A stretch of 32,000 bases of DNA from the NCBI RefSeq assembly GCF_000025665.1, contig NC_013926.1, positions 810,001 to 842,000 on the forward strand, read 5' to 3'. The stretch is from Aciduliprofundum boonei T469 (GTDB lineage Archaea > Thermoplasmatota > Thermoplasmata > Thermoplasmatales > Aciduliprofundaceae). The stretch's first letter is position 1, and each line of letters starts with the position of its first letter. A program made the position numbers and the translations under genes. The notes beneath the pieces were generated by a model. The model made no database searches and was not told the DNA's origin. It saw only the letters and a list, made by a program, of their open reading frames with translations. Positions 5,927 through 31,269 of this stretch are shown piece after piece.

Positions 5927-5942
5927 TGAGCAATGATTGAGA

Positions 5943-5958
5943 TTTTTAATATTTAAAA
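5943..5958 (-). promoter_or_regulatory. Putative TATA box for the receiver gene
   Basis: A/T block tttttaatatttaaaa centred about 25 nt upstream of the ATG at 5926. No SD precedes the ATG. Confidence 0.3.
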
Positions 5959-6079
5959 CTTATTGGAGCATACTCATTTTTTATCATCAGAAATGCCTTA
6001 ATTTCAGCGTTTTCATTTTTGATTATGGAGATTTGAGAATTCTCTCATACAATTAAAATAGAATATCACCAAAAGATAA

Positions 6080-6316
6080 ATGGTGGTTAAGATGAATAAG
6101 AAAATAATTGTGGGGATAATACTCGTTGCAGGGATAGCACTTGGACTTATGGCTATGCATACTCCTATAAAACTGGTTAATGCAAGCACGCTGGAGGTAA
6201 GTGGTGGAAATAACGCTGCCGATGGGCCGCATCCCTCAGAGCCGGGTTCTTGGCAAATCATGCCGTCTATAAATACACTTGATGGCCCACATCCTTCAGA
6301 GCCGGGTAGTTGGTAA
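6080..6316 (+). CDS. Small exported or membrane-anchored protein with two copies of an 11-aa motif (DGPHPSEPGSW), the second at the exact C-terminus
   Basis: 78 aa (74 aa if the start is ATG 6092, which has GGTGG 6082-6086 upstream). A TATA-like aattaaaatag at 6051-6061 sits about 26 nt before ATG 6080, so a leaderless start is also possible. The N-terminus (KK + IIVGIILVAGIALGLMA) looks like a signal peptide or anchor. The two motif copies differ at 5 nt, all synonymous in this frame, which supports this strand and frame over the antisense ORF 6013..6261. Confidence 0.6.
   Translation: MVVKMNKKIIVGIILVAGIALGLMAMHTPIKLVNASTLEVSGGNNAADGPHPSEPGSWQIMPSINTLDGPHPSEPGSW
6221..6313 (+). repeat. Two 33-nt coding repeats (6221-6253 and 6281-6313) separated by 27 nt
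   Basis: Copy 1: gatgggccgcatccctcagagccgggttcttgg. Copy 2: gatggcccacatccttcagagccgggtagttgg. Both translate to an identical peptide; differences are ggg/ggc, ccg/cca, ccc/cct and tct/agt. Confidence 0.85.
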
Positions 6317-8851
6317 TTAAATATTTACAATTGCTACAACCTTTTTCTTCCCCTTTGCAATTTTCTCATATTCTTCTACATAGGCATATCCGTATTTTCT
6401 TAGATACTCCGCTGCATCCTTTGATATATCTATTATGGCTCTTTCGTTTCCAATTCTGGCAGCAAGATTTATGCCCTTATCAAAATACTCCTTTCCTCTC
6501 TCCTTGTTCCCAAGATATGCATAAAATATTCCAAATGAATTATACACATATGCCAACTCTCCCGGAGCATCTAAATCCTCAAATATTTTCTCGCTCTTTT
6601 TGAGATATACCTTCGCATCAAAGAATTTCTCCTTGTACATGCTCCAGTTAGCCATTGAAAGATACAAAATACCAATGCCCCATTTTTCTCCAATTTTCTG
6701 GGAGATTCTCAATGCCTCTCTATAATATTTCTCGGCTATGTCATCGTAGAGGTCATAGTAAACCAATCCTATGTTTCTAATTACATTTGCAAGTCCTGAT
6801 AAATCTCCATATAATTCAAAATATTCCCGGGCTTTTTTGAAATAGGAAATTGCCTCCTCTAAGTTTCCTTCGTCCCTCTCTATCAACCCAAGCCCATTGT
6901 AAGCATAGCCTATACTTTTCAAATCTGAGCTCCTTTCGGCAATTTTTATTGCCTCTAAGATATAATCCTTGGCCTCATCTTTTTCTCCTATTTTCATACT
7001 CATAACTCCAAGTATGTAATATGCCCTTGAAATAATGCTTTCATCCCTTATGCCATTGATCTTCTTTAGGACCTCATTGAGAGTTTTTATCGCTTCCTCA
7101 TACTTTCCCATTTTACCCAATACTTCCGAAATACTTACAACTATTTTGGCGTAGAAATCCAGATCTTTTCCCTTGAAGAGAAATCTCGCTTTTTTATAGT
7201 TATCCAAGGCCTCTTCCCATTTCCCAGAAATGTAATATGTATCTCCTATTATTCCATAGAGTTTCCATTCATAGTCGTCTACATCCTTATCATAACGATT
7301 TAGAATTTCTAACGCAAGATTTCTTATCTCATTGCTACTGGTGAACAGGTACTTTTCATAATTCTCACTTAGAAGTATATTGGCCCTCATCAACTTCTCC
7401 GCATACGTATAATGATAAACTGCCTCCAAAATATCTCCATTTTCCTCGTAGTACCTCGCTGCCATAAGATGGTATTTTTTCCTCTTTTCCTCTGTAAGAT
7501 GCTCATAAACGAAATTCTTTATTATTCTGTGAACTGTGAAATTCTCATACTCCATTTCCAGCAGTATGCTCTTGTTTATGAGTGAGTAAATTATAAAGTA
7601 TTCAAAATTGTTGAGAAGAAGAACATTCATTTTGAAATTTTTTCTGAAAACAGATATAAATTCCAGAGCTTCTCTTTCCTCCTTATTCAATGTTTTCAGT
7701 ATACCTTCAAATATGAACCTTCTCATCATAGGATAATTTTGATCTTTCGCTAGATGAAGCAAGAGAGGATTTCCACCTACGGTAGAGATTATCTTTAACG
7801 CCTTATCCTCCGGCACTCCATACTGCCTCAACATATCCAAAGCATCCTCTTCTTTTAACTCTACAATCTTCAATTCCTTTACCCAACCTAATTTGGATGG
7901 AGGTACTATATCCCCTATCTCCGTACCACTTAATATTACCTTAAAATTGTTTTTAGAATTAACAAGATCTATAATTTTTCTTATCAATTTTTTTGTTTCT
8001 GTATCTGCATTTTCCACAGTGTCAAATATGAAAATCTCATCTCTCAGAGATTCTTTTATAAGAAGAATAACATTGTTCCAGTTCAAATTTCTCTCTTCAG
8101 AAAGAGCAACACTTCTCAAGTATTTTTCAATCTTGGGTATGCCAATCCTTGAGAAAAAACCTGCAATCTGGTGAATAATGCCATCCGCACTTTTCCAGTT
8201 TTCAATTTTAATAAACAGAACATTCCTATCCTTTAATCTCTCTTTTACAAATTTAAGCAATAATGTTGTTTTTCCTATTCCAGAAATTCCAGAGAGTATC
8301 AATATCTTTTTATTTGATTTCGCCCACTTTTCCATTTCTTCCAATTCTTCTTTTCTTCCATAGAATTCCCTAACTATTAAATTCTCATCTATGCTGTGAA
8401 AAGCTTTCTCTCTTCTTCTCAATATTCCCACAAGGTCCAGATTTCTATTTTTATCTAAATTTATAGCAGCGGTTACAAAATCAATTCCGTAATCCTTCGG
8501 AATATCCTTCAAAGGATGAGTTTCCCTATTACCTGAGGAATCAACTACTATAACAGGCAACTCTTTCAACTCATCTTTTATCTTATTTGCTTCAGATATG
8601 CCTTTTCTTGTGAGAAGATAAACACTTCTTTTATTTCTAACACCCCTCACGTGGCATTTCTTAACATATATCAGATCCTCATTCATCAACTTTTTTAGTT
8701 CCCTAGGAATGTTGTTTCTTCCCACACCTATTGAATTGCTAATTCCCTCCTGTGTGAGTTCCACCGGAGCGTTAAATTCATCTATAAATGATGAGTACTT
8801 TGAAAGATGAAGCAGGATACGCATTCTATTGTTAAGATATTTTCTCCCCAT
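6317..8851 (-). CDS. wHTH - STAND/NB-ARC-like P-loop ATPase - TPR repeat protein (signal-transduction ATPase / putative transcription regulator)
   Basis: 844 aa. N-terminal winged-helix-like segment (ELTQEGISNSIGVGRNNIPRELKKLMNEDLIYV..VYLLTRKG). Walker A: ILILSGISGIGKTTLL. Walker B-like: EIFIFDTVENAD. GGNPLLL resembles the GxP (GLPL) motif of NB-ARC/AP-ATPases. The C-terminal ~400 aa are recognisable TPRs (A..YY..A, G.Y.EAI..). Its stop codon abuts the peptide gene's stop (TAATTA). Confidence 0.7.
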   Translation of the reverse strand: MGRKYLNNRMRILLHLSKYSSFIDEFNAPVELTQEGISNSIGVGRNNIPRELKKLMNEDLIYVKKCHVRGVRNKRSVYLLTRKGISEANKIKDELKELPVIVVDSSGNRETHPLKDIPKDYGIDFVTAAINLDKNRNLDLVGILRRREKAFHSIDENLIVREFYGRKEELEEMEKWAKSNKKILILSGISGIGKTTLLLKFVKERLKDRNVLFIKIENWKSADGIIHQIAGFFSRIGIPKIEKYLRSVALSEERNLNWNNVILLIKESLRDEIFIFDTVENADTETKKLIRKIIDLVNSKNNFKVILSGTEIGDIVPPSKLGWVKELKIVELKEEDALDMLRQYGVPEDKALKIISTVGGNPLLLHLAKDQNYPMMRRFIFEGILKTLNKEEREALEFISVFRKNFKMNVLLLNNFEYFIIYSLINKSILLEMEYENFTVHRIIKNFVYEHLTEEKRKKYHLMAARYYEENGDILEAVYHYTYAEKLMRANILLSENYEKYLFTSSNEIRNLALEILNRYDKDVDDYEWKLYGIIGDTYYISGKWEEALDNYKKARFLFKGKDLDFYAKIVVSISEVLGKMGKYEEAIKTLNEVLKKINGIRDESIISRAYYILGVMSMKIGEKDEAKDYILEAIKIAERSSDLKSIGYAYNGLGLIERDEGNLEEAISYFKKAREYFELYGDLSGLANVIRNIGLVYYDLYDDIAEKYYREALRISQKIGEKWGIGILYLSMANWSMYKEKFFDAKVYLKKSEKIFEDLDAPGELAYVYNSFGIFYAYLGNKERGKEYFDKGINLAARIGNERAIIDISKDAAEYLRKYGYAYVEEYEKIAKGKKKVVAIVNI

Positions 8852-9004: not shown

Positions 9005-10276
9005 ATGAAATTTGCACATATTGCCGATGCACATCTTGGCGCTTTTAGCAAGAATCCAAAGTTGAAAGAATTGAACTTAAAAGCGTTTGAAATTGCAATA
9101 CAGAAAAGTATAGAGGAGCGGGTGGATTTCATAATCATTGCAGGGGACTTATTTCATAATCCCATACCGGATATGGAGATTGTTAGAAGAGCGGTGGAGA
9201 TTTTAAAAAATGCGGTTGATAGAGGAATAAGAATCTATGCAATTTACGGCTCACATGACTTCTCTGCTGGCTCAACGGCCCTATTAGATGTTTTAAGTTC
9301 CACGGGTCTTTTCAAAAAAGTTGTGAATTACGAAGTTTATGATGGAAAATTGAGAATTCTACCAGTTGAAGATCCAACGGGAGTGAATATTTTGGGTGTA
9401 TCTGGATTAAGCTCCGCTCAGGAAGTTGAGTACTTTGAGCATATTGATAGAGATTATTTGGAGAGAATCGAGCATCCCAAAATCTTTGTTTTTCACACAA
9501 CCATAAGTGAGCTCAAGCCATCGTACATCCCGGACAGATACGCTCTGCCCAAATTCCTCTTGCCCCAGAACTTTGATTACTATGCTGGTGGCCATTTGCA
9601 CGAGAGGATAGAGAGCGAGCTGAACGGGAAGCCGTTGATATATCCCGGAGCTTTATTTGGTGCTACCTACAACGATCTGGATATTTTGAAAGAGAGGGGG
9701 TTTTACATAGTTGAAGATTTCAAGCCCAGATTTGTGCCTGTGGAAGTGTGCAAATTTTACAAAAGAGTAATAAAAGCGGATGGATATACTGCGGAAGAGT
9801 TGAATAAGAGGCTTTTAGAATTATCAAAGGAGGATTATAGCGGGCAAGTCGTTATTCTCAAAGTTAAAGGAGAGCTTCGTTCTGGAAAAGTTGGAGAAAT
9901 AGATTTTCATTCAATCAGGGAGAATATAAGGAAAACCGCAATTGATGTTCTTCTCAACACTTACTCTCTTACAACCAAAGAAAGAGAAAGGATAAATGTT
10001 GTGGCAGAGAGCAAGGAAGAGATAGAAGAAGGGGTGTTTAAGAAGATTTCAAAATATGGAATTGATGTGACAAGGAGGGCATTCAATATCCTTAAAGAGA
10101 AACAGCCCGAGGGAATGCGCAAAGATGATTTCTCAAGAGAGCTGCAGAGCAAATTACAAGAGTTAATTGATAATGTTAAAGTTGGGGAGAGGGAGGAAAA
10201 AGTGGAGGAGAAGAAAAAATTGGATGAAAATAGAAAGAGTGGAGCTCCAACACTTTTTGACTTTGGGGTGAGATAA
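9005..10276 (+). CDS. mre11: DNA double-strand-break repair nuclease Mre11
   Basis: Calcineurin-like phosphoesterase motifs MKFAHIADAHLG, AGDLFH, YGSHD (motif III with Ser where Asn is usual), FVFHTT and AGGHLHE. The charged C-terminal region ends APTLFDFGVR. The stop overlaps the rad50 ATG (TAATG). The track start GTG 8966 is rejected in favour of ATG 9005. Confidence 0.9.
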   Translation: MKFAHIADAHLGAFSKNPKLKELNLKAFEIAIQKSIEERVDFIIIAGDLFHNPIPDMEIVRRAVEILKNAVDRGIRIYAIYGSHDFSAGSTALLDVLSSTGLFKKVVNYEVYDGKLRILPVEDPTGVNILGVSGLSSAQEVEYFEHIDRDYLERIEHPKIFVFHTTISELKPSYIPDRYALPKFLLPQNFDYYAGGHLHERIESELNGKPLIYPGALFGATYNDLDILKERGFYIVEDFKPRFVPVEVCKFYKRVIKADGYTAEELNKRLLELSKEDYSGQVVILKVKGELRSGKVGEIDFHSIRENIRKTAIDVLLNTYSLTTKERERINVVAESKEEIEEGVFKKISKYGIDVTRRAFNILKEKQPEGMRKDDFSRELQSKLQELIDNVKVGEREEKVEEKKKLDENRKSGAPTLFDFGVR

Positions 10277-12684
10277 TGATAATACGCAAGATTCATCTCC
10301 ATAACATAAGGAGCTACGAAGATCAAGATATAGAATTGGGAAAGGGCATAACTCTCTTTGAGGGGGATATAGGAAGTGGAAAGACCACAATTTTAATGGC
10401 CATTGATTTTGCCCTGTTTGGCAATTCCACTCCAGATTTTTACAGAAGTTTGCTGCGCAAAGGCACAAATAGGGGATTCGTAGAGATAATTTTTGAGCAT
10501 GGAGGAAAGGAGTACAAGATAAGAAGAGTTTTGGAGGCGAAGGGCAAGGGCATAAGCAACACGGAATCTGAAGTTGAAGCACCAGAAGGAGTTGTGAAAT
10601 TAACAGCGAGCGATGTTAGGAACTATGTTTTAAAGTTAATGGGCATTGATGTTGGCTCAAGTAAGAGAAAATCCTTGCCTGTGGTAAAGTATGCAATATA
10701 CACGCCTCAAGAGATGATGAAGGTAATTTTAGAAGGTACTGGAAAGAAGGAAGAAGAGCGTCTTGATGTAATTCGCAGAATATTTAGGTTAGATGAGTAC
10801 AAAGTTGCTAGGGAGAATATTGGAATTGTTTCCAAGGAGTTGGTTTCAGAGTACAGAACTGTTGAGAGTAAGGAGGAAGAAATTGGAAGGATAGAAAGCG
10901 AGGTGAAAGAGAAAGAATTGGAGATAAAGAAAATTGAAGAAGAGATAAAAGAGCTGAATGAGAAAATTACCCAATATGAAAGAGAGTATGAAAGGAAGAG
11001 CAAAGAATGGAAAGAGGTTATGAAATTAAGGGACAGGTACGAGAACCTTCGAAGAGAGATTGAAAAGTTAAAAACTAAAATTTTGGGATTCAAAGAGAAT
11101 TTAAATAAGGCAAATAAGGAACTTGAAGAAATAGAGGTTATAAAAGAAAAGATGAAAAATATAGAAGAGGAAGCACAAAGGTATGAGAGTGTTGAAAAAA
11201 TTAGAGATGAGTTGCAGAGAAAGCTCAACGATATAATGAATACGGAGATAAGATTCAAAAAGGCTCAAGAGCGTATAAAGGTGTTAAAGGAAAAGATAGA
11301 AAAGGCGAAAAATCTGAGAGTGGAATTAGAGAAATTGAAATCTAGGAAAAATGAGTTGGAAAGTAAAACTGCGAAGATTGAAGATCTTGAAAACAGGAAG
11401 AAGGATTTAGAAGAGAGGAGGAGTGAGATAAGAGGTGTGATTGCAGCCATAAACACAAAGATAGAAGAGCTTAGAAAAGAGCTTGAAGATTACAAATCTC
11501 TGGGTGCAGTTTGTCCAAAATGCAAGAGACCTCTTACAGAAGAGCATAAAAAGAAATTGATTAGTGAGACGATTGCTAAGATTGAAGATAAAAAAGAAGA
11601 GCTTAGAAGGGCAAACGCTTCTGAGGTAAAGATAAAGAGAGAAATGCGGGAAATTGATGAAGAGATAAGAGAGCTCCAAGAGAATGCAAAAGCTCTCTCT
11701 GCAATTCAGGAGAGGATAAAGCATATAGAAGATTCAATAAAGGAGGGTGAAGAAGCAGAGAAGGAACTAGAGATTGCAGAGCGAAATTTGCCCATATTTG
11801 ATGAAGAAGAGAAGAGAAAGATGAGCGAGGAATTGGAGAAGGTTAAATTTGAAGTTGAGAGATTGAGAAATGTTTGGAGAGAGTATAATGCTTTAAAAGG
11901 AAGGGTGGAAAGAGAGGGTAAAATAATTGAAGAGATAAAAAATTATAAGTTTGAAATTGAAGGGATGGAGAAAGAACTGCAAAGGAAAAGCAAAGAAATA
12001 AACTCTTTGAATTACAGTGATGATGTATTCAAAAAGCTCAGCGAGGAATACAGAGAGATTGAAGGAATATTGAGTTCTGCAAAGAGAGTAAAGGAAGAGA
12101 AAGAAAAAAGGGTTGAAGAGCTAAAAAATGAAATTGATAAGAAGATGAAATTGATTGAAAAGTTAAGAGATGAAATTAAGCTCTACAAGAAACATGTTGA
12201 GTTTGGAAAATGGCTGAGGGATGAGTTAGCCCAAGCCTTGGAAGAGATAGAGAGATTAAGATTACTTTCTATAAATGAGGAGTTTAGACAGCTATTCGAG
12301 GATTGGTTCCATGAGATAATGGGCGAGAGCGAGTATGAAGCTACAATAGATGAAGATTTCAAGCCCATCGTGAGATACCAGAAATTTGATATGCCCATAT
12401 ATTCCCTAAGTGGCGGTGAGAGAACATCTATAGCTCTTGCTTATAGGTTGGCTCTAAATACCATGGTTAAGAGAAGTTTAAATTTGGAGTCACACCTGCT
12501 CATACTTGACGAGCCCACCGATGGTTTTAGCAAAGATCAACTCTACAAATTAAAGGATGTATTTGACAAAATGGATACGGATCAGATAATAATTGTAAGC
12601 CACGAGAAAGAGCTAATGAATCTTGCAGATACAGTGTACCATGTGGAAAAGGTAAACGGAGTATCAAAAATAAATAAAATCTGA
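10276..12684 (+). CDS. rad50: DNA repair ATPase Rad50 (SMC-like)
   Basis: 802 aa. Walker A GDIGSGKTT; long heptad-rich coiled coil; zinc hook CPKC (11512-11523); signature SLSGGERTS; Walker B LLILDEPTDGF; H-loop VSHEKE. Confidence 0.92.
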   Translation: MIIRKIHLHNIRSYEDQDIELGKGITLFEGDIGSGKTTILMAIDFALFGNSTPDFYRSLLRKGTNRGFVEIIFEHGGKEYKIRRVLEAKGKGISNTESEVEAPEGVVKLTASDVRNYVLKLMGIDVGSSKRKSLPVVKYAIYTPQEMMKVILEGTGKKEEERLDVIRRIFRLDEYKVARENIGIVSKELVSEYRTVESKEEEIGRIESEVKEKELEIKKIEEEIKELNEKITQYEREYERKSKEWKEVMKLRDRYENLRREIEKLKTKILGFKENLNKANKELEEIEVIKEKMKNIEEEAQRYESVEKIRDELQRKLNDIMNTEIRFKKAQERIKVLKEKIEKAKNLRVELEKLKSRKNELESKTAKIEDLENRKKDLEERRSEIRGVIAAINTKIEELRKELEDYKSLGAVCPKCKRPLTEEHKKKLISETIAKIEDKKEELRRANASEVKIKREMREIDEEIRELQENAKALSAIQERIKHIEDSIKEGEEAEKELEIAERNLPIFDEEEKRKMSEELEKVKFEVERLRNVWREYNALKGRVEREGKIIEEIKNYKFEIEGMEKELQRKSKEINSLNYSDDVFKKLSEEYREIEGILSSAKRVKEEKEKRVEELKNEIDKKMKLIEKLRDEIKLYKKHVEFGKWLRDELAQALEEIERLRLLSINEEFRQLFEDWFHEIMGESEYEATIDEDFKPIVRYQKFDMPIYSLSGGERTSIALAYRLALNTMVKRSLNLESHLLILDEPTDGFSKDQLYKLKDVFDKMDTDQIIIVSHEKELMNLADTVYHVEKVNGVSKINKI

Positions 12685-25963: not shown

Positions 25964-26473
25964 ATGGATAGAAAGATTTTGCATAAACTATCCTACGGGA
26001 TGTATGTGATCTCATCTGCGAAAGAGGGAAAGCTGGATGGGCAGATAGCCAATACAGTTTTTCAAATAACTTCTAAACCTGCGAAAATTGCAATCAGTAT
26101 AAACAAAGAAAATTTGACATATGAGTATATAAAATACAGCAATGTATTTTCAGTTTCTATACTATCAACTGAAGCACCTTTTAAGTTCATTGGTTTATTT
26201 GGATTCCGTTCAGGTAGGGATATAAATAAATTTGAAAATGTAAAATATAAAATTGGAGTTACAGGCGCCCCAATAGTCCTTGATTATTCATTGGGGTATA
26301 TAGAGGCAAAGGTTGTAGATAGCGTGGATGTAGGCACGCATGTATTATTTATTGGAGAGGTGGTGGATGCGGACTCTATTCAAGAGGGAACTCCTATGAC
26401 TTATGATTATTATCACAATGTTGTGAAGGGTAAGACCCCGCCCAAGGCGGCAACCTATGTGGGAGGGAGTTAA
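25964..26473 (+). CDS. Flavin reductase-like FMN-binding protein (candidate NAD(P)H:rubredoxin reductase module)
   Basis: 169 aa with the flavin_reduct domain pattern (LSYGMYVISS..DGQIANTVFQITSKP..ISINKENLTYEYI..FSVSILS; GTHVLFIGEVV). Confidence 0.75.
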   Translation: MDRKILHKLSYGMYVISSAKEGKLDGQIANTVFQITSKPAKIAISINKENLTYEYIKYSNVFSVSILSTEAPFKFIGLFGFRSGRDINKFENVKYKIGVTGAPIVLDYSLGYIEAKVVDSVDVGTHVLFIGEVVDADSIQEGTPMTYDYYHNVVKGKTPPKAATYVGGS

Positions 26474-26971
26474 ATGGATATTGAAGAAATAAATTTTGAA
26501 ACATTATTCGGAATAGCCGTTAAGAGTGAGATAGAGAGCAGGAATGTTTATGAATATATGGCAGAAAAAACTAAGAATTACTTACTAAAAGATCGTCTGA
26601 AATTTCTTGCCAACGAAGAGAAAAAGCATGAGGAATTCCTAAGGAATTACTTTTCAAAAATGTTTCCTAATAAAGAATTAAAATTACCTGAAGAATCACC
26701 AGTGCCTTTACCACATATTGAATATGACGCTGACACACCCATTTCTTCTATTTTAGAGCAGTCGATGAAGGCCGAAGTTGCGGCCAGAGACTACTACCTT
26801 TCCATGTCTAAGAAGGCGGAGAAGATGGGTGATATAGAGCTTGCCAAAGGCCTGTACTATCTTGCAAACATGGAGATGGGCCACTATCATATCTTGGAAA
26901 ATGAGCTTGAATCCGAGAAGAGGTTTGAGGACTACGATGCTTATTGGCCTATGATGCATGTAGGTCCATGA
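26474..26971 (+). CDS. Rubrerythrin-family diiron four-helix-bundle protein without a rubredoxin domain (erythrin-like)
   Basis: 165 aa. Two E...ExxH half-sites: KSEIES...NEEKKHEEF and KAEVAA...NMEMGHYHI. The ATG directly follows the upstream stop. Confidence 0.7.
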
Positions 26972-26987
26972 AAAGGAGGTGAAAGAG

Positions 26988-27146
26988 ATGAAATGGAGAT
27001 GTATGGTTTGCGGATATATATACGACCCAGAGGTCGGAGATCCGGATAGTGGTGTACCCGCAGGGACATCCTTTGAGGAGTTACCTGAGGATTGGGTATG
27101 TCCTGTCTGTGGAGCATCCAAGGACATGTTTGAAAAGGTGGAGTAA
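26988..27146 (+). CDS. rub: Rubredoxin (52 aa; absent from the ORF track because it is under 60 aa)
   Basis: Translation: [52 protein letters not shown], with canonical CxxCG...CPxCG motifs. AGGAGGTGA SD 6 nt upstream. Its stop lies 2 nt before the fprA ATG. Confidence 0.92.
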
Positions 27147-27148
27147 AG

Positions 27149-28333
27149 ATGATAAGAAAGATAGCAGATGGAGTTTACAATGTTGGCGCTATTGACTGGG
27201 AGAGAACGCTCTTCGATGAGATAGTACCTCTCCCCCAGGGTACCAGTTACAACGCGTATCTTGTGAAGGGAGAGAATAAAACGGCGATTATAGATACTGT
27301 GGAACCAGAGAAATTGGAGCAACTCATTGACAATTTGGAAGAATTGAAGGTGGATAAAATAGATTACATTGTATCAAATCATGCAGAGCAAGACCACTCT
27401 GGAGGCATACCCTATCTTCTTAAGAGATATCCAGAGGCAAAGGTTGTGACAAATGCAAAGTGCATGGGATTTGAGAAGGATTTGCTTCATTTGAAGGATG
27501 AAGACTTTATCATAATCAAGGAAGGAGATACATTAGAGCTTGGGGGGAAAACACTCAAGTTCATCATGACTCCCTGGGTCCATTGGCCTGAGACGATGAC
27601 CACATACTTAATGGAAGATAGAATAGCATTTACCTGTGATTTCTTCGGTTCTCATGCTGCCACTTCTCACACATTTGCGGAGCAATATGATAGGATTTAT
27701 CACGAGGCAAAGAGGTATTATGCGGAAATTATGATGCCATTTAGGCAAATTATTACGAGGAATATTAAGAAGATAGAGGAGCTGGAGCCAAGGATAATAG
27801 CACCTAGCCATGGACCTGCCTACAGTGATCCTAAATTCATAATCGATGCTTATAAAGAATGGACTTCTTCCGAGACAAAAAATGAGGTACTAATCCTCTA
27901 TGTTTCAATGCATGGAAGTACTAAAAAGATGGTCTATGCTCTCGTGGATTATTTAGGTGAGGAAGGAGTTGAGGTTAAGGTCAGGGATCTTATAACATCT
28001 AATTTGGGAGAGATTGCAATAGACATGGTTGATGTTACTACAATCATTCTAGCTACTCCCACAATGCTGGCGGGACCACATCCTCATGCAGTGTATGCTG
28101 CCTATCTCACCAATGCTCTTAAACCAAAGGCCAAGTTTGTGGGTATAATGGGCTCATATGGATGGGGTGGCAGAACAGTTGATATTCTAAAGTCCAATCT
28201 TGGAGCTTTGAAAGTTGAGATCTTAGAACCTCTACTGATTAAGGGATTGCCTAAAAAAGAGGATTATGATAAGATAAAAGAATTTGCAAAGATAATTGCA
28301 GAGAAGCATAGAGAAGTGGGGGTGATGAAATGA
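27149..28333 (+). CDS. fprA: Flavodiiron protein (A-type flavoprotein; rubredoxin:O2/NO oxidoreductase)
   Basis: 394 aa. Metallo-beta-lactamase-like domain with diiron motif NHAEQDHSGG, plus a C-terminal flavodoxin domain (VLILYVSMHGSTKKM). Confidence 0.9.
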   Translation: MIRKIADGVYNVGAIDWERTLFDEIVPLPQGTSYNAYLVKGENKTAIIDTVEPEKLEQLIDNLEELKVDKIDYIVSNHAEQDHSGGIPYLLKRYPEAKVVTNAKCMGFEKDLLHLKDEDFIIIKEGDTLELGGKTLKFIMTPWVHWPETMTTYLMEDRIAFTCDFFGSHAATSHTFAEQYDRIYHEAKRYYAEIMMPFRQIITRNIKKIEELEPRIIAPSHGPAYSDPKFIIDAYKEWTSSETKNEVLILYVSMHGSTKKMVYALVDYLGEEGVEVKVRDLITSNLGEIAIDMVDVTTIILATPTMLAGPHPHAVYAAYLTNALKPKAKFVGIMGSYGWGGRTVDILKSNLGALKVEILEPLLIKGLPKKEDYDKIKEFAKIIAEKHREVGVMK

Positions 28334-28803
28334 AGGAGGGCGATATTGCAGAGGATTTTTGCCTGCCTGATTACGAGGGCAAAGAGCATTGTCTGTGCGA
28401 TTATCGAGGTAAATGGGTAGTTCTTTATTTCTACCCCAAGGACAATACATCAGGATGTACAAAGGAGGCAAAGGGCTTCACAGAGATGCAAGATGAATTT
28501 GAAAAGCTTGGGGCGGTTATAATCGGGGTGAGTAAAGATTCACCCAAGAGTCATGCGAAGTTCATAGAGAAACATAATCTGAAAATTCTTCTTTTAAGCG
28601 ATGAAGAGCATAAAGTTCTGGAGAGGTATGGTGCCTGGGGGAAGAAGAAAAACTATGGGAGAGAATATTATGGTACGATAAGAACCACATTCCTCATAGA
28701 CCCTGAAGGTAAAATTGTGAAAGTTTGGAGAAATGTGCGTGTCAATGGTCATGTTGAGAAAGTTTTAGAAGAATTGAAAAAATTTGTTGAGGTGAAAAAA
28801 TGA
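28330..28803 (+). CDS. bcp: Bcp-type peroxiredoxin
   Basis: 157 aa. [14 protein letters not shown] peroxidatic-Cys motif. ATGA overlap with fprA. Confidence 0.88.
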
Positions 28804-29306
28804 GAAAAATGGTTGAGAAAAGTTTAGAGGAGGCATTCGCCGGCGAGAGTATGGCACATATGAAATACACCATATTCGCCGAAGTTGCCGAAAGAGAGGG
28901 AAAGAAGAATATTGCACGACTGTTTAGGGCTATAGCTTATGCAGAATTCGTGCATGCGAAAAATCATGCTACGAACCTGGGGTATGTTAAGAGTACTGAA
29001 GAAAATCTCTCCACTGCAATTGGTGGGGAAACATTTGAAGTTGAGGATATGTATCCTGCATACTTGGAGATTGCAAAGTACTTTGAGGAGAAGGGAGCCG
29101 AACGCTCATTCCACTATGCCATAGAAGCTGAAAAAATTCACGCTAAGATGTACGAAGATGCCAAGGATAAGGCTTCTAAGAACGAGGATATTGAAGAAAA
29201 GAGCATTTACATATGCCCTGTTTGCGGATATACATATATGGGCGATGAGCCACCGGAGAAGTGCCCGGTTTGTGGTGCTCCGCAGGATAAATTTGTAAAA
29301 TTTTGA
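28800..29306 (+). CDS. rbr: Rubrerythrin
   Basis: 168 aa. Diiron ligand motifs [25 protein letters not shown] and [10 protein letters not shown], plus a C-terminal rubredoxin-like CPVCG-x12-CPVCG. ATGA overlap with bcp. Confidence 0.9.
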
Positions 29307-29320
29307 GGAGGTGATGAAAG

Positions 29321-29836
29321 ATGATAGATAAGGAAATAGAAGAGGCGATAAATAAACAGATAAATGAAGAGATGTACTCTGCATATCTCTATCTTTCAAT
29401 GTCTGGGTATTTTGAAAATATAGGATTGAAGGGATTTGCCAACTGGATGTATGTCCAGTACCAGGAAGAAATGGATCATGCAATGAAGTTTTACCGCTAT
29501 TTAATCGAGAGAGGTGGCCGTGTAAAATTATATGCCATAAAGGAGCCGCCACATGAGTGGAACTCCCCGCTTCATGCTTTTGAGGAGACATTGAAGCATG
29601 AGAAACATATCACACAGTGCATAAACAACCTTGTAGACCTGGCAGAGAAGAAGAAAGACCGTGCTACATTTAATCTTCTGCAGTGGTATGTGGATGAGCA
29701 GGTTGAAGAAGAGGCAAACGATGAAGAGATCATTCAGATGTTAAAGATGATTGGAGACCATGGCCATGGTTTACTTATGCTTGATCGTGAACTTGCAAGA
29801 AGGACTTACACTCCTCTTGTAAATGAGGAAAAATAA
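29321..29836 (+). CDS. Ferritin
   Basis: 171 aa. NEEMYSAYLYLSMSGYF and QEEMDHAMKF ferroxidase-centre motifs. SD AGGAGGTGA. Confidence 0.88.
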   Translation: MIDKEIEEAINKQINEEMYSAYLYLSMSGYFENIGLKGFANWMYVQYQEEMDHAMKFYRYLIERGGRVKLYAIKEPPHEWNSPLHAFEETLKHEKHITQCINNLVDLAEKKKDRATFNLLQWYVDEQVEEEANDEEIIQMLKMIGDHGHGLLMLDRELARRTYTPLVNEEK

Positions 29837-30777: not shown

Positions 30778-31269
30778 ATGGATGAGAAAAAATCAGATAA
30801 TGCTTTGGAAAACATAGATTTTGAAGCTTTAGGAGACCTCTTAGCAGCAGAATCGGTTTGGATTGGAGACGGAAGAACAAAGACAAAAATTCATGATATG
30901 GAATTGGAGGTAGATAACCCTCTCAGTGTTAGTCCAATAAACCCCCCACCCCATGTAACTTGGCCTGAACAGCTCTTACCAGCGGCTTTAGCAGTGTGTT
31001 TCATAACTACAATGACAGCTATAAACGATAAAATAGGAGTGCACATAAATGAGCTTAGGGTTATAGTAAAGCCCATACTAGGGATTGACACAGATGGGGG
31101 GTTCAAGTTTGATAAGATGAAATTGAATGTAAAACTAAGTATTGCTAGGGGAGAAAAAAGCAAGGCCGAAAAACTTGTGGAGATAACGCATAAATATTGC
31201 TTGGTAAGTAAGGCAATAAAGGGCAATGTGAAAGAAATTATAGAAGTGGATATAAAGGAGGTAGATTGA
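30778..31269 (+). CDS. OsmC/Ohr-family peroxiredoxin-like protein
   Basis: 163 aa with the two conserved Cys contexts LAVCFITT and THKYCLVSKA. Confidence 0.8.
   Translation: MDEKKSDNALENIDFEALGDLLAAESVWIGDGRTKTKIHDMELEVDNPLSVSPINPPPHVTWPEQLLPAALAVCFITTMTAINDKIGVHINELRVIVKPILGIDTDGGFKFDKMKLNVKLSIARGEKSKAEKLVEITHKYCLVSKAIKGNVKEIIEVDIKEVD

Follow-up and report, generated by a model that had tools for sequence, protein, structure and literature searches.

Peptide sensing by cytoplasmic receptors with tetratricopeptide repeats (TPRs) is known from the RRNPPA family, which has been described for Bacillota, their conjugative elements and phages (PMC12700828) and whose signature is a receptor of 250-500 amino acids (aa) with TPRs, with or without a helix-turn-helix (HTH) or phosphatase domain, and no ATPase (PMC10075063). 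The Phr and NprX pro-peptides show intragenic duplication of the signal, the copies being identical or diverged and accompanying shifts in specificity (PMC5199041). A second group of interest is the PH0952/MalT family of STAND NTPases, in which an inducer is expected to bind the sensor and release autoinhibition, after which ATP-dependent multimerisation follows; the matching passages of the PH0952 paper name no inducer for this protein (PMC6468293). In archaea, the cell-to-cell signals known or suspected are small molecules such as carboxylated acyl-homoserine lactones and diketopiperazines (PMC4609331), and the literature that we searched holds neither a report of an archaeal peptide pheromone system nor a description of a STAND-TPR receptor with a genetically encoded neighbouring peptide inducer. 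Here we analyse a 32,000-nucleotide (nt) stretch of Aciduliprofundum boonei T469 (NC_013926.1, positions 810,001 to 842,000; hereafter the window), in which a small gene encodes a protein ending in two copies of the motif DGPHPSEPGSW and abuts the gene for a large STAND NTPase with TPRs. With a response regulator gene on the other side, they form a new, lineage-restricted three-gene cassette. We favour, at about an even chance, the reading that the small protein is a pro-peptide and that its repeated module serves as the cognate ligand for the TPR sensor encoded alongside.

The cassette has much in common with RRNPP(A) systems (Rap-Phr, NprR-NprX, PlcR-PapR, PrgX-PrgQ and AimR-AimP). In both, a small pro-peptide gene adjoins that of a cytoplasmic TPR receptor with a DNA-binding domain, the active part of the pro-peptide is (or is here proposed to be) at its C-terminal end, peptide residues are hypervariable between strains with the TPR region of the receptor diverging, and the signal module is duplicated within the gene, as for Phr and NprX (PMC5199041). 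With 74 aa (71-84 in relatives), the pro-peptide falls within the 10-100 aa of RRNPP(A) pro-peptides, and the two genes are direct neighbours. Rap acts on the stand-alone receiver Spo0F, and a stand-alone receiver is also part of this cassette. Unlike RRNPP(A) receptors, the one here is 844 aa long and carries a STAND NTPase between its winged helix and its TPRs; the winged helix is MarR-like, in contrast to their XRE HTH; the host is an archaeon; the genes are convergent, stop to stop; and the module has 10-11 residues and always occurs twice. Because an 844-aa STAND receptor in an archaeon departs from the RRNPP signature, we describe the cassette as one that would work like RRNPP systems and not as a member of that family.

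The receptor itself is built like MalT and PH0952, with an effector at one end, a NOD with Walker A/B motifs, an arm and a TPR sensor. Its Pfam matches are AAA_22, AAA_16, ATPase_2, TPR_12 (E 5e-22) and TPR_MalT, and its closest solved relative is the STAND-TPR protein PH0952 (6mfv; sequence E 4e-11, Foldseek E 3e-17). The Walker A motif GxxGxGKT (G187-T194) and D276 are invariant in 31 receptor homologues. In the AlphaFold2 model (predicted local distance difference test, pLDDT, 88), a MarR-like winged helix occupies residues 1-95 and a TPR superhelix residues ~470-835. The TPR part superposes on peptide-binding TPRs, among them those of LGN and of the phage phi3T Rap with its pheromone (Foldseek TM-score on target 0.71-0.72), and we predict that the receptor TPRs are of the peptide-binding type. 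MalT senses maltotriose and carries a C-terminal LuxR-type HTH. As inducer we propose a co-evolving peptide that the adjacent gene encodes, and the effector, unlike in MalT and PH0952, is a winged helix at the N-terminus. Matches of the receptor to PADLOC and Avs models were marginal (E ~1e-3), and a role in anti-phage defence is not favoured.

The motif provides the first line of evidence. The first-pass annotation of this DNA, made from the sequence alone, had reported a duplicated 11-residue motif with only synonymous differences between its copies, and this observation was reproduced exactly: the two 33-nt copies start 60 nt apart, are identical at 28 of 33 positions and differ by 5 nt in four codons (GGG/GGC, CCG/CCA, CCC/CCT and TCT/AGT), all synonymously. 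Of the single-nt changes that the motif could undergo, only 24% are synonymous. When the open reading frame (ORF) was shuffled 2000 times, the best 33-mer self-match was 23/33 and 28 was never reached. The copies have a G+C content of 61-67%, compared with 38% for the window. The same pattern extends to related loci (referred to below by L numbers). Between copies with GPHP..W cores of the same peptide sequence, we counted 17 nt changes, every one of them synonymous (17 to 0): five in the window, five in L006, three in L008, one each in L005, L007, L010 and L011, and none in L009. In L009, identity begins at the Gly codon; the next 30 nt are identical and the preceding codon differs at all three positions. 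This boundary, together with the synonymous-only differences, shows that selection acts on the GPHP..W peptide in both copies; the duplication spans 11 residues as first described, and the selected unit is one residue shorter, at 10 aa. Occasional conversion or duplication of the copies also occurs.

Selection acts very differently on the parts of the motif. We calculated the ratio of nonsynonymous to synonymous differences per site (pN/pS) from seven A. boonei-like alleles; the values are sums over non-independent pairs with few codons and are indicative only. The ratio is 0 for the DGPHP codons (pS 0.47) and 0 for the central Pro (pS 0.69), and it reaches 1.99 at the four variable positions (xxPxx); the N-terminal part with the helix (0.34), the linker (0.45) and the spacer (0.42) lie in between. 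The proposal that the peptide is under purifying selection, for which a comparison of repeat and linker had been suggested, is thus supported in part: it applies to the DGPHP and central Pro scaffold, whereas four residues within the motif are hypervariable between strains. Among the first 22 proteins collected there are 26 different variable segments, with an identity of 0.83 within a protein and 0.25 between proteins, a difference as high as which was found in 0 of 100,000 permutations. In 18 of 26 proteins the cores of both copies are identical. The pattern is an unusual one, in which scaffold residues are invariant, core residues are hypervariable and the two copies are held identical.

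Comparison of closely related alleles shows how the variable residues turn over. Across the two motifs and the spacer, L003 (5311-5384) and L007 (2323-2396) differ at 20 of 74 nt, whereas flanks of ~1.5 kb are 99-100% identical, running from Cas6 through the response regulator and the intergenic region into the small gene (its first 140 nt) and taking in the 3' end of the receptor gene. The N/D to Q and A to S replacements between them are parallel in both copies. Two hybrid alleles, PNPDA/SEPGS in L001 and PNPDA/TDPDA in L003, link the PNPDA type of L015, the SEPGS type of the window and the TDPDA type of L004. In L001 (6223-6288), a third unit, VIYPSTNLL-DGPHPTEPDSW (VIYPSTNLLDGPHPTEPDSW), lies right behind an in-frame TAG that is a Gln codon in other alleles. 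L002, otherwise the same allele, is without these 63 nt (6223-6225); L001 is an ENA metagenome scaffold and L002 an independently assembled NCBI metagenome-assembled genome. Either an extra copy has been silenced here, or a unit was recently gained or lost. At L015 (5534-5653), the contig breaks off within the small gene, in an exact 55-60-nt tandem of spacer and motif (…IMSYIHSLDGPHPPNPDAWQ repeated), and spacer sequence also stands ahead of the first visible copy; this allele may hold three or more copies, or the assembly may have collapsed at the repeat.

Table 1. Features of the peptide-receptor cassette, in coordinates of the window
Feature	Position	Strand	Remarks
Stand-alone receiver-only response regulator, 107 aa	5603..5926	-	Divergent from small gene; Pfam Response_reg E 5.5e-15
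Divergent control region between response regulator and small gene	5927..6091	.	Alignment of 9 loci
TATA box TATTTAAA	5950-5957		Adjoins regulator start
Palindrome GAGCATACTC	5966-5975		One mismatch to GAGCATGCTC
Second GAG-N4-CTC palindrome GAGAATTCTC	6035-6044		Just upstream of TATA-like box of peptide gene
TATA-like box ATTAAAATAG	6052-6061		
Small gene, 74-aa pre-peptide MNKK...GSW plus TAA stop	6092..6316	+	ORF list and 26 homologues
N-terminal MNKK and 18-residue hydrophobic helix, residues 1-22	6092..6157	+	Alignments
Motif copy 1, DGPHPSEPGSW	6221..6253	+	Constant residues GPHP, central P, W; variable residues S, E, G, S
Spacer QIMPSINTL between copies	6254..6280	+	
Motif copy 2, DGPHPSEPGSW	6281..6313	+	Its Trp is the C-terminal residue
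wHTH-STAND NTPase (NOD)-arm-TPR sensor, 844 aa, proposed receptor (wHTH, winged helix-turn-helix)	6317..8851	-	Convergent, stop to stop with small gene
Receptor residues 581-780, central and C-terminal TPRs	6512..7111	-	Diverges first between close strains

The coordinates of the cassette are collected in Table 1. The small gene was listed as a plus-strand ORF at 6080..6316 that holds both motif copies in frame. An upstream alignment of nine loci assigns its start to the ATG at 6092. The ATG at 6080 is not conserved among these loci and overlaps a conserved Shine-Dalgarno-like element, GGTGR, 5 nt before the ATG at 6092 (GGTGG at 6082-6086 in the window); the product is therefore the 74-aa protein. 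The plus-strand ORF at 6092-6316 is a real gene, as the first-pass annotation had held: it has 26 homologues of one architecture, its sense frame is free of stops in every relative, and its pN/pS is 0.39. We nevertheless considered the alternative that this ORF is no gene, the repeat being non-coding or the antisense ORF of 82 aa (frame at 6013-6261) being the real gene. In its favour, the antisense frame is open in five of seven close relatives and its pN/pS of 0.42 is so near the sense value that pN/pS alone does not tell the strands apart; this low value is the expected shadow of the sense frame. The alternative has next to no chance given that the sense ORF is intact in 26 of 26 relatives with its start context kept in the nine aligned loci, that all differences between copies are synonymous where the GPHP..W cores are identical, and that stops interrupt the antisense frame in L004 and L008, with only fragments of 50-55 aa left of it in distant loci. 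The earlier dismissal of the antisense ORF as spurious was thus correct.

To delimit the family, we combined a word index of 5.8 billion proteins, an exhaustive profile search of 1.84 billion representatives and a profile search of the 5.8-billion set with ORFs read from related loci. These three protein searches and the locus ORFs yielded 26 distinct homologues of 71-84 aa and no others, all from loci labelled Aciduliprofundum or 'DHVE2 group archaeon'; one of the receptor orthologues is AciM339_0600 of Aciduliprofundum sp. MAR08-339 (locus L009). Pfam, NCBIfam and PADLOC contain no family for the small protein, JGI metagenome contigs gave no match to its protein pattern or to a degenerate two-copy DNA pattern, and a viral scan found no relative.

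All 26 proteins follow a common plan: MN[KW]K, a hydrophobic helix of ~18 residues, an [AG]-[MV]-H junction, a linker and two motifs. The number of repeat copies across relatives, which had been proposed as a check, turned out to be exactly two G-P-H-[PL]-x(4-6)-W copies in 26 of 26, set 5-15 residues apart. Eighteen of 26 proteins end with the second Trp, the others with Q, GQ, NQ or, in one case, a 7-residue tail; at the spacer between the copies, W is followed by Q in 12 of 26. The linker is rich in Gly, Asn and Asp and contains an N-x-S/T sequon in 21 of 26 proteins. Such sequons would fit N-glycosylation of an extracellular segment and could also arise by chance in an N/S/T-rich linker. 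The sequon of the window protein, N30-A-S (6179-6187), stands between the hydrophobic helix and the first motif. AlphaFold2 predicts a helix at residues 3-22 (pLDDT ~80) and no fold for the tail (pLDDT 44-66), which, the alignment being shallow, argues weakly against a folded mini-domain; an unfolded tail would fit a linear motif. The hydrophobic segment may be a Sec-type signal peptide or a signal anchor, both being equally possible from the sequence. The earlier description of an exported mini-protein therefore holds as regards the motif at the extreme C-terminus and the presence of an N-terminal hydrophobic segment, for export or for anchoring.

Conservation of gene order ties the small gene to its neighbours. 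Its stop codon (6314-6316) touches the stop of the receptor gene at 6317, and the two genes abut in 11 independent loci with 0-13 nt between stops. The response regulator adjoins the small gene in L001-L005, L007, L009, L010, L012 and L014; in the window protein, the receiver residues D7/D8, D52, T78 and K93 are present. The full trio is found in L001/L002, L003, L004, L005, L007, L009, L010, L012 and L014, remaining intact at receptor identities down to 43% (L012), and in L006, L008, L011 and L015 it is present as far as the contigs reach. Gene content further out varies by locus (purH, Cas6/Cas3, SAICAR synthase, aconitase). In L003 (176-4576) and L007 (93-1588), the cassette adjoins type I-A CRISPR-Cas genes (Cas6, DUF364, Cas3) in place of purH, so the chromosomal context of the three-gene unit is not constant. 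No histidine kinase adjoins the response regulator in the window; in L012 and L014 the regulator is followed by a PAS-HisKA-HATPase kinase, in L010 by a PAS/GAF protein. At L014 (1-5071), two receptor paralogues flank the peptide gene and response regulator, followed by the PAS histidine kinase, and only the first paralogue abuts the peptide gene.

The divergent region between response regulator and small gene carries conserved palindromes. A 10-bp palindrome, GAGCATGCTC, is kept in nine of nine aligned loci, the A. boonei-like loci having one mismatch (GAGCATACTC or GAGAATGCTC). The exact form occurs once per locus in seven loci (L006, L008-L012 and L014). Five of these loci are part of the nine-locus alignment and have it in the intergenic region that separates the response regulator from the small gene; the other two, L006 and L008, have it ~115-125 nt before the peptide gene, close to the end of contigs that do not reach a response regulator. 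The nine aligned loci also keep the TATA box at the regulator start and the second GAG-N4-CTC palindrome with the TATA-like box just behind it. The palindromes are candidate operators, to which we would assign the winged helix of the receptor.

The receptor gene also bears on the proposed pairing, as its sensor end is a local hot spot of divergence. The receptors of the window and L015, whose peptides carry SEPGS and PNPDA, respectively, are 94% identical, with 32 of their 53 amino-acid differences in residues 561-800; divergence is 20% in residues 641-720 compared with 2% in the NOD. In other near-identical pairs with different peptides, the TPR/NOD divergence ratio is 1.5-7.8. The ratio of nonsynonymous to synonymous substitution rates (dN/dS) in residues 581-780 is 0.23-0.28, versus 0.04-0.19 elsewhere, in four of eight strain pairs. 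Positive selection in the sensor was rejected, regional dN/dS being at most 0.28 across the eight pairs. Between the window gene (6317-8851) and that of L015 (3001-5535), dS is mosaic, with 0.04 in residues 161-480 and 0.24-0.29 in residues 481-844, which suggests a recombination breakpoint inside the receptor gene. The small gene and the sensor end of the receptor gene share a dip in nucleotide identity, which suggests that they are exchanged together as a unit. Such exchange would explain why short-read contigs break at this locus; those of L001, L002, L003 and L008 break within the receptor gene. Taken together, we regard the covariation of peptide and sensor as suggestive. A second dip in identity between the window and L015 is found at 9900-10500, at the C-terminus of Mre11 and the N-terminus of Rad50 (77-86%, against 94-100% in the flanks).

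The gene itself, the strong selection on its motif, the matched yet strain-divergent copies and the conserved linkage of trio and palindromes are shown by these comparisons. Export, processing, re-import, binding and the direction of regulation are inferred, and we propose the following model. The pre-peptide would be inserted into the membrane or secreted through Sec, and its tail would be cut to give two equivalents of a peptide containing GPHPSEPGSW. On re-entering a cell, the peptide would bind the concave face of the TPR sensor and relieve STAND autoinhibition, and the ATP-bound receptor oligomer would act through its N-terminal winged helix on the conserved GAG-N4-CTC palindromes, so that the cassette would induce itself and feed into a phosphorelay. 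Strain-specific 'pherotypes' would be defined by the four variable residues, diversifying rapidly with both copies and the sensor kept matched. In this form, the cassette would represent the first ribosomally encoded peptide pheromone in Archaea, serving quorum sensing or kin discrimination, sensed by the TPR domain of a STAND ATPase and independent of RRNPP with a convergent logic. We consider this broader claim possible though somewhat doubtful, and the same degree of doubt applies to the idea that the convergence includes intragenic signal duplication and pherotype diversification. The narrower idea of a multi-copy precursor or ligand, voiced in the first-pass annotation, is strengthened by the adjoining wHTH-STAND-TPR gene, by the response regulator and by the lack of a folded tail in the AlphaFold2 prediction.

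Several established systems illustrate parts of this model. Pherotypes are known from the Bacillus comQXP loci, and the yeast alpha-factor prepro-protein carries tandem identical copies of its pheromone. As in comQXP, the island of divergence between near-identical strains is limited to the signal-coding segment and adjacent sensor DNA, and as in the alpha-factor precursor, several copies of one mature peptide would come from one precursor. Unlike comQXP, the cassette has no ComQ-like modifying enzyme or membrane histidine-kinase receptor, and unlike in alpha-factor, copy number is fixed at two and no Kex2-like dibasic sites flank the copies. We also compared the locus with the HET-s/NWD2 amyloid motifs and the bacterial and archaeal BASS motifs, in which a short motif, sometimes as two pseudo-repeats, likewise stands at the C-terminus of a small protein encoded beside a STAND NTPase with TPRs. 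In NLR-associated amyloid signalling, the STAND protein must carry the same motif at its own N-terminus. Six-frame matches to our motif in the window are the two small-gene copies and one isolated match at 31073-31102, and in the related loci paired copies occur only in the small gene. The amyloid analogy was rejected: the receptor lacks the motif and has a winged helix at its N-terminus, and a Pro-rich motif is incompatible with a beta-solenoid amyloid.

Three other explanations of the small protein were weighed, and the fixed copy number of two, by which bivalency may matter, is one reason for keeping the first two of them. The protein could be anchored in the membrane and expose a Pro-rich extracellular tail, its modules binding an extracellular or envelope partner or forming an antigen-like variable surface element that viruses or competitors target; linkage to the STAND-TPR and response-regulator genes would then reflect co-regulation only, and the copies would be alike mainly through gene conversion. 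We think this unlikely, though it is the strongest of the competing accounts. The 18-residue helix and positive N-terminus predict an N-in, C-out topology, the sequon in 21 of 26 linkers is what one would expect of an extracellular archaeal segment, two copies are kept throughout, and hypervariability is typical of surface-exposed targets. Recent conversion or duplication would also fit the variable parts that are identical in nucleotide sequence (L005, L007, L009) and the exact tandem of L015. Conversion alone, however, does not explain three to five synonymous and no replacement changes in the window, L006 and L008. Moreover, no candidate extracellular partner is conserved nearby; a cytoplasmic sensor of the peptide type and a receiver are the only partners that persist while the neighbourhood changes, and the TPR region of that sensor is the other local divergence hot spot. 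Alternatively, the protein may be a membrane-tethered, direct partner of the STAND regulator that is never secreted, with a cytoplasmic tail or with the precursor bound before export, so that its two modules hold two TPR sensors and either sequester the regulator at the membrane as an anti-activator or template its dimerisation. This draws on the same linkage and co-divergence and dispenses with the import step; the archetype MalT is under the control of direct-binding protein inhibitors, and two copies in all 26 proteins make sense as bivalency since STAND proteins act as oligomers (PMC6468293). We judge it improbable, for two reasons. MNKK or MNWK before the helix and a near-neutral flank after it predict that the tail is outside, and hypervariability between near-identical strains, typical of between-cell discrimination, is hard to explain for an intracellular housekeeping interaction.

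The third explanation, put forward in the first-pass annotation as a RiPP-like core, is a ribosomally synthesised and post-translationally modified peptide (RiPP): an N-terminal leader would precede GPHP..W cores modified, for instance at Trp, His or Pro, by enzymes encoded at a distance, giving a bioactive natural product or a ComX-like pheromone. Multi-core precursors are known among RiPPs, and the small size of the precursor and its repeated core-like modules, each closed by an invariant Trp with invariant His and Pro near it, would suit this idea, which is itself compatible with signalling. It found no backing in the neighbourhood, where the small gene has no conserved radical-SAM, YcaO, prenyltransferase, lanthipeptide, peptidase or export gene beside it in any locus. 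The N-terminal part is a hydrophobic membrane helix and not a typical soluble leader, and the match of the receptor to the RiPP-associated TPR protein HaaT of NCBIfam (64.8 bits against a cut-off of 1125) reflects generic TPR similarity. Since no enzyme is linked and the conserved neighbours are instead the STAND-TPR protein, the receiver and sometimes a PAS kinase, we rejected a RiPP as the principal interpretation and give it only a slim chance.

Our preferred reading, a pro-peptide sensed by the neighbouring receptor, has to face a number of observations that weigh against it. The receptor is cytoplasmic, so a re-import step must be assumed, and neither an Opp-type transporter nor a protease is linked to the cassette. 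The hydrophobic segment, with its 18 residues, could be an uncleaved anchor, in which case the tail would be tethered outside the cell. The convergent arrangement is unlike that of most RRNPP loci, although prgQ and prgX are also transcribed convergently. The fixation of the two-copy state fits a 'two copies needed' model better than the transient duplication seen for Phr. Two receptor homologues, L013 (38% identity) and L016 (27%), are without such a peptide gene, and the peptide-receptor gene association is confined to the DHVE2 clade. Regarding co-divergence, TPR-region dN/dS is 0.12-0.13 in the other four of eight strain pairs and never exceeds 1, and L003 and L007 carry different peptides and yet are identical at all but one of the 91 C-terminal receptor residues. 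Peptide and TPR distances, compared in a partial Mantel test given NOD distance, showed no significant correlation (r 0.14, p 0.25, nine pairs), because peptide distances saturate.

The surroundings of the cassette in the window are ordinary archaeal chromosomal genes, including AcnX, purH, Mre11/Rad50, the ribosomal proteins L10/L1/L11, Spt5 and FtsZ. Two further regions were recorded. An oxidative-stress cluster that has no relation to the cassette spans 25964-29836 and comprises a flavin reductase, two rubrerythrins, a flavodiiron-like protein, a peroxiredoxin and a ferritin. At 16-2439, a long ORF with 1007 aa in L001 joins a tRNA-ligase anticodon-binding domain and DUF5915 to a helix-hairpin-helix, a zinc ribbon and, at the C-terminus, DUF835; for a protein resembling aminoacyl-tRNA synthetases, this fusion is unusual.

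The locus thus provides a candidate for the first peptide cell-to-cell signal in archaea, in an archaeon of deep-sea vents. The candidate is testable in cultured Aciduliprofundum, given a defined 10-residue peptide, a sensor domain, a putative operator and natural allelic variants as specificity controls. Even if signalling is the wrong interpretation, the small gene cleanly illustrates how automated annotation can overlook a lineage-specific gene or put it on the wrong strand. If the interpretation is right, archaea would have arrived independently at peptide signalling by way of a cytoplasmic TPR receptor, and a family of archaeal STAND regulators, a receptor class so far not known to use an encoded cognate peptide, would have gained a natural inducer. 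The route of duplicating the signal and then letting it diverge towards new specificities would, in that case, be a general one.

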